From the NCBI RefSeq assembly GCF_003018235.1, contig NZ_CP027437.1: a stretch of DNA of 64,000 nt, one strand, 5' to 3'. The position numbers and the translations under genes are program-made. This document shows, piece by piece, positions 22,556 to 24,100 of this stretch. How positions within the stretch are numbered: the first letter of the stretch is position 1; every line of letters starts with the position of its first letter. Source of the stretch: Escherichia coli (GTDB lineage Bacteria > Pseudomonadota > Gammaproteobacteria > Enterobacterales > Enterobacteriaceae). The notes below the pieces were generated by a model that was not told the DNA's origin, made no database searches, and saw only the letters and a list, made by a program, of their open reading frames with translations.

Positions 22556-23281
22556 GTGAAAAAGACTTTTATGCTTTTAATTTGCATGCTAATAAGCAGC
22601 CCTGTCTTTGCAACAAAACCGGACGCGCCGAATAAGCCGGAGATGAATATCTTCGAGCTCGGCATCAGACCCGATCGGGACAACGACTTTGCAGACGTGG
22701 CCAGACAGACGATTTCCGCTTCGGTTGATCATGAAGCAGGTACACTGGCGATGTATGCCCTGCAACGCAGCGACAATTCAGGTCAGGCATTCATGTTCGA
22801 ACTCTATGAAAATGAGCGTGCTTATCGCAAACATCTCAATGCCGCCCCATACAAAGCATTCGCTGCTCGTGCACCTGACATTATTGACAGGAAGAAGAAA
22901 ATTACCCTGGAGCCACAGTTTCTGGGCGACAAACACATCATACCGAATGAACGAACTATCAATAATCTGGTGATCGTCGAAGTAAAGCCTGAATTTCAGA
23001 GCGAATTTAGAAACATCGTCCTTCCTGAAATGGTCGAGTCGCTCAAAGTAGAGAAATGCGTGTTAGCCATGTATGCCGGTACAGATTCAGAGACTCCAAA
23101 ACGCTGGTATTTCTATGAGATTTACGCCAGTGAGGAGGATTATCAACTGCACCGACAAACGCTGCACTTCCTAGATTACCTCAGGCAAACGGCGCATATG
23201 AGCGCCAGGAAGGACGCAATCCCGGTAAAACCGGTATTTCTTCGTAACAAAGGCGGAATCAAACAGGAGCCGCAACGTTGA
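22556..23281 (+). CDS. Secreted protein with two ABM (antibiotic-biosynthesis-monooxygenase-like) domains
   Basis: 241-aa ORF; predicted Sec signal peptide (MKKTFMLLICMLISSPVFA|TKP); two ~90-aa halves each resembling ABM/quinol-monooxygenase folds. Domain call from sequence feel, not a profile search. Confidence 0.65.
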   Translation: MKKTFMLLICMLISSPVFATKPDAPNKPEMNIFELGIRPDRDNDFADVARQTISASVDHEAGTLAMYALQRSDNSGQAFMFELYENERAYRKHLNAAPYKAFAARAPDIIDRKKKITLEPQFLGDKHIIPNERTINNLVIVEVKPEFQSEFRNIVLPEMVESLKVEKCVLAMYAGTDSETPKRWYFYEIYASEEDYQLHRQTLHFLDYLRQTAHMSARKDAIPVKPVFLRNKGGIKQEPQR

Positions 23282-23296
23282 CCAGTAAGGATTAAC

Positions 23297-24100
23297 ATGA
23301 AAAGCGTACTTGCAGCAGCGGCTATGTCGCTTGTTATTTCTGATTTTGCTAATGCTGAGGAAACAAGAGGTAAAGCTATGATGAAAATAGAACCGTCAGC
23401 GATTTCGGAAGCTGATATTCGTTCCGTCTCACCGGCTCTCGCGCGCTTTGGTCGCGAAGCTATTACTGAAGATCTGTGGACACGCGACGCCCTCTCACCG
23501 AGGGATCGTAGTGTGGTGACCGTCGCCATGCTGATTGCCCGCAACCAGCCTGCCGAGCTTAAGCACTATATTGACGTCGCTCTCGATAGCGGCGTGACGC
23601 CAGCGGAATTATCAGAAATCATTACCCATCTGGCGTTCTACTCAGGTTGGCCAAATGCAATGTCAGCCGTCAGCGTGACCAAAGCAGTATTTGAAACTCG
23701 TGGCGTCACGCCAGATGCGCTTCCTGACGCTTCTCCGGACCTGCTTCCTCTCAATCAGGAAGCAGAAAAGCAGCGTTCAGAGACAGTGGAAAAAAATGTT
23801 GGCCCAATATCTCCAGGCCTGGTTAAATTCACTGCTGATCCACTCTTCCTGGATCTATGGCAAAGACCCGCGCTGAAACCCCGCGACAGAAGCCTGATTA
23901 CGGTCAGCGCCTTAATCGCATCCGGACAGAGCGCGCAGATTGGCTATCACCTCAATAGAGCAATGGATAATGGACTTTCTGTTGAGGAAGCTGGTGAGAT
24001 CGTTACCCAGGCCGCCTTCTATGCTGGCTGGCCAAACGCATTTACCGCTGCTCCGGTTGTGGGAGAGGTGCTAAACAATCGATCATCGAGTAAAAGGTAA
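23297..24100 (+). CDS. Secreted protein with two carboxymuconolactone-decarboxylase (CMD/AhpD-like) domains
   Basis: 267-aa ORF; signal peptide (MKSVLAAAAMSLVISDFANA|EE); internal duplication (...HLAFYSGWPNAMSAV... and ...QAAFYAGWPNAFTAA...). Confidence 0.7.
   Translation: MKSVLAAAAMSLVISDFANAEETRGKAMMKIEPSAISEADIRSVSPALARFGREAITEDLWTRDALSPRDRSVVTVAMLIARNQPAELKHYIDVALDSGVTPAELSEIITHLAFYSGWPNAMSAVSVTKAVFETRGVTPDALPDASPDLLPLNQEAEKQRSETVEKNVGPISPGLVKFTADPLFLDLWQRPALKPRDRSLITVSALIASGQSAQIGYHLNRAMDNGLSVEEAGEIVTQAAFYAGWPNAFTAAPVVGEVLNNRSSSKR

Follow-up and report, generated by a model that had tools for sequence, protein, structure and literature searches.

Tandem-domain ABM and CMD proteins with predicted Sec signal peptides, encoded by the two final genes of an accessory operon remnant in Escherichia coli

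The window, that is, the whole stretch of 64,000 nucleotides of Escherichia coli DNA that was analysed, contains two open reading frames on the plus strand that agree with the original prediction in position and spacing: ABM2 (22556-23281), which starts with a GTG codon and encodes a precursor of 241 amino acids, and CMD2 (23297-24100), which starts with ATG and encodes a precursor of 267 amino acids. The two genes are 15 nt apart, CMD2 has its own Shine-Dalgarno (SD) motif (AGGA, 5 nt ahead of the start codon), and a credible terminator is lacking; judged by these features, the genes are close enough for co-transcription, which had been considered likely. The same operon contains, on the same strand, the genes for a Flavodoxin_2-type NAD(P)H-dependent oxidoreductase that is KefF/MdaB-like (20846-21418) and for an aldo/keto reductase (AKR) of 339 amino acids (21421-22440), neither of which has a signal peptide.

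ABM2 and CMD2 close a modular accessory operon, part of which is deleted here. The full gene order is YCII-like, DJ-1/PfpI, AKR, Amidohydro_2, Flavodoxin_2, AKR, ABM2 and CMD2, and the operon adjoins a divergent LysR gene. At the deletion/replacement junction of the window (20148-20485), 338 bp stand in the place of 3.7 kb of E. coli strain 1190, which comprise the LysR regulator gene, the YCII-like, DJ-1/PfpI and first AKR genes, and the 5' part of the Amidohydro_2 gene. The latter is already fragmented in strain 1190, and what remains of it in the window (20504-20695, plus strand) encodes the C-terminal 63 amino acids, with 87% identity to residues 282-343 of the Serratia enzyme. The first gene of the full island (102 amino acids) has a non-significant match to YCII (E 0.34), and its homologues have weak YCII matches among precomputed Pfam assignments. 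Among 5426 complete E. coli genomes, none has the junction of the window, and 453 (about 8%) contain the segment from Flavodoxin_2 to CMD2. The locus is an ordinary remnant of an accessory island and not a new system.

ABM2, which is named 'putative quinol monooxygenase' in RefSeq by the PGAP annotation, contains two Pfam ABM domains (PF03992), one at residues 32-104 (22649-22867, plus strand, E 4.7e-11) and the other at residues 141-209 (22976-23182, plus strand, E 9.3e-10), and its halves are 24% identical over 96 amino acids (E 9e-12). In the AlphaFold2 model (pLDDT 93.5), repeated strands and helices form two ferredoxin-like halves in one chain. Residues that are invariant in the family lie mostly in domain 1 (S56, E60, G62, T63, L64, M66, E82, Y84, Y90 and H93). 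Two structural-genomics entries, both called 'putative monooxygenase', have the same arrangement of two ABM domains in a single chain across the whole mature protein, namely 3MCS (FN1347 of Fusobacterium nucleatum) and 3F44 (Lactobacillus acidophilus). The identity of ABM2 to these proteins is only 25-26% (phmmer E 4e-25 for 3MCS and 6e-18 for 3F44), and the structural match in Foldseek is close, with TM scores of 0.84 for the query and 0.93-0.96 for the targets and an rmsd of 1.4-1.6 Å. Like these two structures, ABM2 is by its model a pseudo-dimer in which two cofactor-independent ABM folds are fused. The protein of the window has a private substitution in domain 2, G168C (TGC at 23057-23059; GGC in strain 1190), at a position that is Gly in 41 of 51 family members and in all 107 scorable close homologues.

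Two characterized single-domain ABM proteins, both cytoplasmic, deserve comparison with ABM2. The only named NCBIfam family that matches is LsrG, the isomerase of (4S)-4-hydroxy-5-phosphonooxypentane-2,3-dione (E 3e-14; PDB 3QMQ, E 7e-5). ABM2 residues E82 and H93 presumably correspond to E54 and H65 of LsrG. However, LsrG is encoded in the lsr operon, whereas the neighbours of ABM2 are Flavodoxin_2, AKR and CMD genes, and ABM2 reaches 53.3 bits and lies outside the lsr context, whereas the equivalog NF007791 is defined by 135 bits and by that context. No YgiN-specific NCBIfam profile matched ABM2. MdaB and YgiN of E. coli reportedly form a pair of quinone reductase and quinol monooxygenase, to our knowledge the only characterized pairing of an ABM protein with a Flavodoxin_2 protein. 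As in the operon described here, an ABM-fold protein is genetically linked with a Flavodoxin_2-family NAD(P)H oxidoreductase; however, YgiN is a homodimer, whereas in ABM2 the two units are fused and a signal peptide is predicted, and the Flavodoxin_2 protein of the operon resembles KefF/KefG more than the family named 'NAD(P)H oxidoreductase'.

CMD2 contains two Pfam CMD domains (PF02627), at residues 54-129 (23456-23683, plus strand, E 7.4e-17; motif SEIITHLAFYSGWPNA) and at residues 176-255 (23822-24061, plus strand, E 2.9e-17; motif GEIVTQAAFYAGWPNA), with Gln in the second motif in place of the His of the first. Its halves are 43% identical over 98 amino acids (E 2e-31) and both contain the F/YxGWPNA motif; the proposal of internally duplicated ABM and CMD folds was thus borne out for both proteins. 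The AlphaFold2 model of CMD2 (pLDDT 72, from a shallow alignment) served for fold assignment only; it is all-helical and matches 4G9Q and 2AF7. With 4G9Q, a tandem-CMD structure that is called '4-carboxymuconolactone decarboxylase' by homology only, CMD2 shares 51% identity (E 3e-73 over residues 25-262). The parent protein of 4G9Q is identical to a Sinorhizobium-type protein of 259 amino acids, which has a signal peptide and is encoded next to a divergent LysR gene, in one operon with genes for ABM and AKR proteins. It belongs to another subfamily and has His in both E-x3-H motifs, whereas the second half of CMD2 has Gln.

Each half of CMD2 can be aligned with CMD domains of the PcaC type (2AF7, E 4e-11; PcaC profile TIGR02425, E 1.8e-33 overall), with which it has the all-helical CMD fold in common. 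However, the 115.3 bits summed over the two halves are below the cut-off of 155.7, no pcaB/D/G/H-type neighbours were found in any locus examined, and CMD2 differs from PcaC in being duplicated and, by prediction, exported; a genuine PcaC of the beta-ketoadipate pathway was therefore rejected. Cysteine is absent from CMD2 and from 98 of its 120 closest relatives. An AhpD-like periplasmic peroxidase was also ruled out, because without cysteine there is no catalytic CxxC. By its sequence, CMD2 joins two PcaC-like CMD domains in one chain and is devoid of cysteine. The redox activity that had been suggested for the gene pair therefore does not hold for CMD2 in the AhpD sense.

Both precursors very probably carry Sec signal peptides, as had been predicted. 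For ABM2, the predicted peptide is MKKTFMLLICMLISSPVFA (22556-22612, plus strand), with cleavage after Ala19, and for CMD2 it is MKSVLAAAAMSLVISDFANA (23297-23356, plus strand), with cleavage after Ala20. The N-terminus of ABM2 can be parsed as MKK-TFMLLICMLISSPVFA, cleavage, and TKP, with MKK, TFMLLICMLISSPVF and A as n-, h- and c-regions ahead of T, and that of CMD2 as MK-SVLAAAAMSLVISDFANA, cleavage, and EE, with MK, SVLAAAAMSLVI and SDFANA ahead of E. Both thus have the sequence features of Sec (SPase I) signal peptides, that is, a positively charged n-region, an h-region of 12-15 residues (7-15 being typical), and small residues at -3/-1 ahead of a mature protein with a polar start. The assignment was made by inspection, comparison with homologues and a simple hydrophobicity heuristic, which does not tell signal peptides from first transmembrane helices and gives some false positives. 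With this heuristic, ABM2 (3.34) and CMD2 (2.38) score within the span covered by fimbrial and binding proteins of the window, and the Flavodoxin_2 and AKR proteins encoded next to them have negative scores. Within the operon, the n/h/c pattern is confined to ABM2 and CMD2. In the AlphaFold2 models, residues 1-25 of ABM2 have low pLDDT and residues 1-34 of CMD2 have pLDDT below 50. Export via Tat was rejected for both proteins, as neither N-terminus contains the RR of the twin-arginine motif S/T-R-R-x-F-L-K; the absence of this motif argues for the Sec route, which fits cofactor-free proteins. Lipoproteins, which would require a lipobox [LVI][ASTVI][GAS]C, were excluded as well: CMD2 has no Cys, and in ABM2 the LLIC sequence has Ile at -1 and its Cys is not conserved (variants LLLGLL and LLIWML).

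It should be noted that RefSeq starts ABM2 (WP_000909116.1, 231 amino acids) at Met11 (22586, the PGAP start) and thereby leaves out the signal peptide, and that the SD motif ahead of the GTG codon is weak. Together with the limits of the heuristic, this could be taken to mean that the N-termini are not cleaved export signals, with ABM2 starting at Met11 and staying in the cytoplasm, or with both proteins anchored in the inner membrane. We consider this very improbable. The GTG codon and the residues upstream of Met11 are conserved in all 12 loci of Enterobacterales species, which favours the long form of ABM2; other Proteobacteria have an ATG start and, after it, the same KK-hydrophobic-AxA pattern; and the short h-regions contain Ser/Pro/Gly, with AxA and a polar mature N-terminus after them. 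In addition, the Gram-positive homologues of ABM2 begin exactly at the domain and lack a signal peptide; 3F44 is from a Gram-positive lineage. The start of WP_000909116.1 would thus probably remove the signal peptide, and localization predictors would call ABM2 cytoplasmic.

Across genera, the signal pattern of ABM2 and CMD2 homologues is constant while the N-terminal sequence drifts. Of the 51 proteobacterial ABM2 loci, about 49 encode a signal-like N-terminus (by our own reading of the N-termini; the heuristic by itself flagged 45), compared with 0 of 29 Gram-positive loci. For CMD2, the signal was seen in most relatives sampled from two subfamilies, the Enterobacterales one and the 4G9Q-type one, including the parent of 4G9Q. 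Short forms in the latter subfamily are read here as truncated start calls, in which the c-region of the signal is still present. To judge from these sequences, export is the norm for the ABM2 and tandem-CMD families in Proteobacteria. The exported, duplicated pair had been regarded as unusual, but tandem ABM and CMD proteins had already been solved (3MCS, 3F44 and 4G9Q) and export is the usual case. A CMD2 paralogue of Yersinia has a lipoprotein-type signal (MMSGC).

The adjacency of the two genes, their spacing with a separate SD motif for CMD2, and the predicted export of both products would be consistent with a periplasmic redox enzyme of two obligate components, such as a pair of quinol oxidase and peroxidase, which is one reading of the two-component activity that had been suggested. 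Indeed, ABM2 is directly followed by CMD2 at 11 of 12 loci of Enterobacterales species, a single natural fusion protein with the arrangement SP-CMD2-ABM exists (P0438), and the Sinorhizobium operon unites ABM, AKR and CMD2, so that the association of ABM with CMD2 recurs. However, CMD2 does not adjoin ABM2 at any of 39 other proteobacterial loci or 29 Gram-positive loci, CMD2 occurs in Klebsiella operons and in Pseudomonas without ABM2, and the families differ greatly in size, with 223 close homologues of ABM2 and at least 8000 candidates for CMD2. An obligate pair would co-occur wherever either member is found, and this was not observed; with the absence of cysteine from CMD2 in addition, an obligate redox enzyme is quite improbable. 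Instead, as far as gene content can tell, ABM2 and CMD2 appear to be modules that can be separated from each other within a larger operon.

The same gene set beside a divergent LysR gene was found in E. coli 1190, Serratia, Pantoea, Rahnella, Klebsiella, Pasteurellaceae, Neisseriaceae and Sinorhizobium. A Flavodoxin_2 gene lies within 8 kb of ABM2 at 11 of 12 Enterobacterales loci and 26 of 39 other proteobacterial loci, and it adjoins CMD2 in Klebsiella. An Amidohydro_2 gene is located directly 5' of ABM2 at 26 of 29 Gram-positive loci and at 5 loci of the Pasteurellaceae type. The closest solved relatives of the full Amidohydro_2 protein are LigW and the gamma-resorcylate, 2,3-DHB and salicylate decarboxylases (E 1e-44 to 5e-31). 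The Pasteurellaceae protein has a Tat signal and would therefore be in the same compartment as ABM2, whereas that of E. coli-type islands has none and would therefore be in a different one.

From this context we infer that the operon probably serves phenolic or quinone compounds of plant or dietary origin, with ABM2 and CMD2 as its periplasmic, cofactor-free enzymes; taken as a whole, this explanation has, in our estimation, about an even chance of being correct. The operon, putatively under the control of the LysR regulator, would handle phenolic acids, hydroquinones and quinones that come from plants or from the diet of the host. Its nucleotide-dependent reductases would remain in the cytoplasm, and ABM2 and CMD2 would be able to act in the periplasm because they need no diffusible cofactor. 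ABM2 might oxygenate or tautomerize a quinol-like compound with O2 alone, and CMD2 might decarboxylate or isomerize a carboxylated or lactone intermediate, the two acting as separable modules rather than as an obligate complex. The DJ-1 and AKR proteins have their best NCBIfam matches to electrophile-detoxifying enzymes, HchA and YdjG, both below cut-off, as are all NCBIfam matches of operon members.

Some of the evidence points away from aromatics, and the operon could alternatively serve sugar-derived dicarbonyls, keto-acids or lactones. ABM2 would then be an isomerase similar to LsrG or to mutarotases, the substrate of CMD2 would be a lactone or a carboxylated enol, and the AKRs would be keto-reductases like DkgA or YdjG. 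LsrG, after all, is an isomerase of a sugar-derived diketone, and its structures are found among both the sequence and the fold matches of ABM2; furthermore, the AKRs match DkgA and DkgB in addition to YdjG, the DJ-1 protein matches glyoxalase III, and some related operons contain a PQQ sugar dehydrogenase (an exported GSDH-type enzyme in that of Sinorhizobium), which would fit a pathway of sugar dicarbonyls and lactones. Nevertheless, this alternative is unlikely: the sugar-type matches are all under the family cut-offs, the most conserved partner of ABM2, Amidohydro_2, is nearest to aromatic-acid decarboxylases and not to sugar lactonases, and at the loci examined the cluster has no conserved gene for a sugar transporter or kinase.

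The structures of both families have been solved and their function is unassigned, which for tandem-CMD proteins concerns a large family. Predicted export, a recurrent operon next to LysR with quinone- and carbonyl-reducing enzymes, and the hydroxybenzoate-decarboxylase-like Amidohydro_2 neighbour together narrow the candidate substrates to hydroxy-aromatic acids and quinols. A far-reaching suggestion, which is speculative and somewhat unlikely, is that ABM2 and CMD2 mark an undescribed, widespread periplasmic pathway for small molecules in Gram-negative bacteria, built from enzymes that are normally thought to be cytoplasmic. Such a pathway would comprise a Tat-exported, hydroxybenzoate-decarboxylase-like Amidohydro_2 and two fused enzymes exported via Sec, an ABM oxygenase and a CMD decarboxylase; some lineages would add an AKR exported via Tat, as well as Flavodoxin_2-like, cupin and cyclophilin-like proteins with signals. 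Tat motifs are present in partner enzymes of other lineages. Phenolic acids or hydroquinones would be converted outside the cytoplasm by enzymes encoded beside the divergent LysR gene, and in Gram-positives the core of ABM2 and Amidohydro_2 would be cytoplasmic. Searches of the literature for these genes, exported CMD/ABM proteins, the gene combination of the operon and periplasmic hydroxybenzoate decarboxylases found nothing relevant.

Whatever the function of the full operon, its activity in the present strain is doubtful, because the LysR gene and the first genes have been deleted, only 63 codons of Amidohydro_2 are left and G168C alters ABM2. A crude scan of positions 20000-24600 yielded promoter and terminator counts at or under the shuffled expectation, with no sigma-70-like promoter upstream of the remnant, and an Rfam scan (20000-24700) gave only sub-threshold chance matches. 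ABM2 and CMD2 could thus be inert relics, transcriptionally orphaned and/or inactive, that are in the process of being lost as in K-12. The replacement of the region 5' of the first gene together with the regulator gene and four upstream genes, the prior fragmentation of Amidohydro_2, the alteration of a conserved Gly and the retention of the segment in a small fraction of complete genomes would agree with this, and we regard it as a real possibility, albeit one below an even chance. However, a conserved gap of 150 bp upstream of the Flavodoxin_2 gene could house an internal promoter, the four remaining open reading frames are all intact, and CMD2 is 100% identical to widespread RefSeq-type alleles (clusters P0121/P0122).

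The two ORFs of the original prediction, ABM2 (tandem ABM; 22556-23281, plus strand) and CMD2 (tandem CMD; 23297-24100, plus strand), were both confirmed, including their spacing of 15 nt, and an AGGA Shine-Dalgarno sequence precedes the CMD2 start. Pfam searches verified the nature of the halves, with two ABM domains in ABM2 (E 4.7e-11 and 9.3e-10) and two CMD domains in CMD2 (E 7.4e-17 and 2.9e-17), and the proposed internal duplication holds for both proteins, the halves sharing 24% identity in ABM2 (E 9e-12) and 43% in CMD2 (E 2e-31). The predicted duplicated fold was recovered in an AF2 model of ABM2 (pLDDT 93.5), which has two ferredoxin-like repeats and can be superposed on 3F44 and 3MCS, single-chain structures with tandem ABM domains (TM 0.84/0.96); CMD2 is 51% identical to the tandem-CMD structure 4G9Q (E 3e-73). 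Both architectures were already known from structural genomics, and ABM2 and CMD2 are annotated members of their families.

Signal peptides were judged from the sequence, with a simple hydrophobicity heuristic (which also picks up first transmembrane helices and gives a few false positives) and by homologue comparison. ABM2 begins with MKK-TFMLLICMLISSPVFA and CMD2 with MK-SVLAAAAMSLVISDFANA, with predicted cleavage before TKP and EE, respectively. These are the only signal-like N-termini within the operon, their hydrophobicity scores lie within the range seen for fimbrial and binding proteins of the window, and inspection revealed a twin-arginine motif in neither protein. The RefSeq/PGAP coding sequence of ABM2 begins at Met11 (WP_000909116.1, 231 aa; affected region 22556-22586), and therefore the signal peptide is cut off. 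The residues upstream of Met11 and the GTG codon are conserved at 12 of 12 Enterobacterales species loci, which supports the 241-aa form; the Serratia signal is diverged yet equivalent (VKNIITMTLCLLVGSPAFA, cleavage before A). The N-terminal pattern and its conservation bear out the predicted signal peptides, making export of both proteins very likely.

The exported pair had been called unusual, which is contradicted by the distribution of the signals. A survey with an ABM2 profile yielded 80 species loci, 51 proteobacterial and 29 Gram-positive. A KK-hydrophobic-AxA extension precedes the ABM domain in about 49 of the 51 proteobacterial genes (45 flagged by the heuristic and four by eye, the remaining two apparently without a start codon), whereas all 29 Gram-positive genes begin at the domain itself (MITRLFKL...). 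Most Enterobacterales CMD2 homologues also have signal-like N-termini, as do full-length forms of the 4G9Q subfamily (MKRLFAPLIGVMMMTASNAGA, cleavage before QQPN); the shorter forms are read as truncated start calls because the signal c-region is retained. A Yersinia CMD2 paralogue carries a lipoprotein-type signal. Judged by these predicted N-termini, export is usual among proteobacterial members of both families and no oddity.

The view of ABM2 and CMD2 as one two-component unit fares less well. CMD2 lies directly downstream of ABM2 at 11 of 12 Enterobacterales loci, but at none of 39 loci in other Proteobacteria (Flavodoxin_2 neighbour in 26, LysR in 25) and none of the 29 in Gram-positives (Amidohydro_2 directly upstream in 26). 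The fuller island of E. coli strain 1190 comprises a divergent LysR gene followed by a 102-aa YCII-like protein, DJ-1/PfpI, an aldo/keto reductase (AKR), a fragmented Amidohydro_2, Flavodoxin_2, AKR, ABM2 and CMD2; Serratia has the same set with Amidohydro_2 intact. Klebsiella has CMD2 without ABM2, either as LysR / small ORF - Flavodoxin_2 - AKR - CMD2 or as LysR - Flavodoxin_2 - CMD2 - cyclophilin-like, and distant signal-bearing ABM2 homologues occur in LysR / Flavodoxin_2 / AKR / YCII clusters without CMD2. Their pairing is thus specific to one lineage, and the two genes are separable modules. Nevertheless, the ABM-CMD2 association does recur outside the adjacent pair, in a natural metagenomic fusion (P0438, 381 aa; signal-tandem CMD-single ABM) and in a Sinorhizobium medicae operon with a 4G9Q-type protein (LysR, then ABM with signal - ABM - AKR - CMD2 - DUF2255 - AKR - GSDH - cupin). 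Another metagenomic fusion (P0498, 417 aa) has the order signal-cupin-tandem CMD.

Partner proteins are also exported in some relatives. In the Sinorhizobium cluster (locus L094; signal-bearing genes at 4754-5926 and 3896-4285), a Tat signal on a 390-aa AKR (TNRRTLLGAG) and Sec signals on the single-domain ABM, GSDH and cupin make the whole cluster look periplasmic. The Amidohydro_2 partner has a Tat signal in Pasteurellaceae, at locus L012 and in Serratia inhibens, and would therefore share the periplasm with ABM2; those of Pantoea, Rahnella and E. coli are without one. Such signals (e.g. MNNLNRRQFLTQSAVVLAGG...) were seen on the Amidohydro_2 genes upstream of ABM2 at L040, L042, L043, L047, L049, L050, L012 and L023, in Pasteurellaceae and a few others, and S. 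plymuthica retains a degenerate relic. Flavodoxin_2-like and cyclophilin-like proteins of Klebsiella oxytoca are predicted to be exported, the former with Sec-type signals beside CMD2 (L005, 6383-6979; paralogues in L013, L016 and L019). In Pseudomonas orientalis (L093, 5863-5982), a 39-codon ORF 18 nt upstream of CMD2 is a Tat-like signal alone (DRRNFLIAGSG...).

With regard to chemistry, CMD2 contains no cysteine, ruling out AhpD-type peroxidase chemistry and leaving the suggested redox role of the CMD protein unsupported. Its halves each resemble PcaC (summed 115 bits, below the 155.7-bit cut-off), no pca genes are nearby, and the motif His of half 1 and 4G9Q is Gln in half 2. LsrG is the only named family match of ABM2, far under the LsrG cut-off. 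The Amidohydro_2 partner most resembles non-oxidative aromatic-acid decarboxylases (LigW 1e-44, gamma-resorcylate 1e-42, 2,3-DHB 1e-40, salicylate 5e-31). E. coli MdaB and YgiN form a quinone reductase/quinol monooxygenase pair, which the operon's link of Flavodoxin_2 and ABM parallels, and ABM and CMD enzymes would not need a diffusible cofactor, consistent with Sec export. DJ-1 and the AKRs weakly match glyoxalase III and methylglyoxal reductase, and a sugar-dicarbonyl/lactone pathway remains a rival for the operon's role. Taken together, the chemistry clues lead us to favour an operon handling phenolic acids, quinols and quinones with periplasmic steps; that ABM2 and CMD2 mark an undescribed periplasmic aromatic-processing pathway is a minority reading. 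No functional study of these genes was found in the literature; new here are a corrected start for ABM2, a pattern of export that runs through the family and divides Gram-negative from Gram-positive bacteria, the operon membership of both genes and the decarboxylase-like Amidohydro_2 partner.

In the window, which is E. coli chromosome, the segment is accessory and lies between hipBA (18447-20053) and a ydeQRST-type fimbrial operon (beginning at 25155); of 5426 complete E. coli genomes, 453 contain at least 80% of 20400-24900. RefSeq names here are NAD(P)H-dependent oxidoreductase, aldo/keto reductase, 'putative quinol monooxygenase', 'carboxymuconolactone decarboxylase family protein' and a truncated HTH gene. 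At 20148-20485, 338 bp replace 3.7 kb of strain 1190 (LysR, YCII-like, DJ-1, AKR and most of Amidohydro_2), a junction found in none of the 5426 genomes. Of the decarboxylase-like Amidohydro_2, a gene already split in strain 1190, only the C-terminal 63 residues survive, as the ORF at 20504-20695 (aa 282-343, 87% identity). The replacement segment comes after the hipA terminator hairpin (20163-20199), and about 20222-20478 matches, at about 82% identity in a few genomes, an unannotated element present in multiple copies (up to 5-10). Relative to strain 1190, ABM2 carries G168C (GGC to TGC, 23057-23059), which hits ABM domain 2 in its conserved E-x-G-V-L-A-M-Y motif; Gly occupies this position in 41 of 51 family members and 107 of 107 scorable close homologues, the substitution (0/107) being private to the window. 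The four remaining ORFs are intact, a crude scan upstream of them revealed no credible promoter, and it is uncertain whether this strain expresses them.

Upstream of hipBA, an autotransporter-like ORF (14651-18202, 1183 aa) is probably an allele of strain 1190's 1806-aa ECSE_1600-family gene that has diverged or been disrupted, because alignment starts only at 18179 and the ORF stops about 50 nt short of that gene's stop position. The 84-aa ORF at 24515-24769 covers only the C-terminal HTH portion of a regulator of the AraC family, its strain 1190 counterpart being an incomplete pseudogene in RefSeq. A perfect 13-nt inverted repeat (CACAGTTATGAAC-N9-GTTCATAACTGTG, 24200-24234), 100 nt past the CMD2 stop and immediately preceded by similar GTTCATGAAC words, may serve as a terminator stem or as the site of a regulator.
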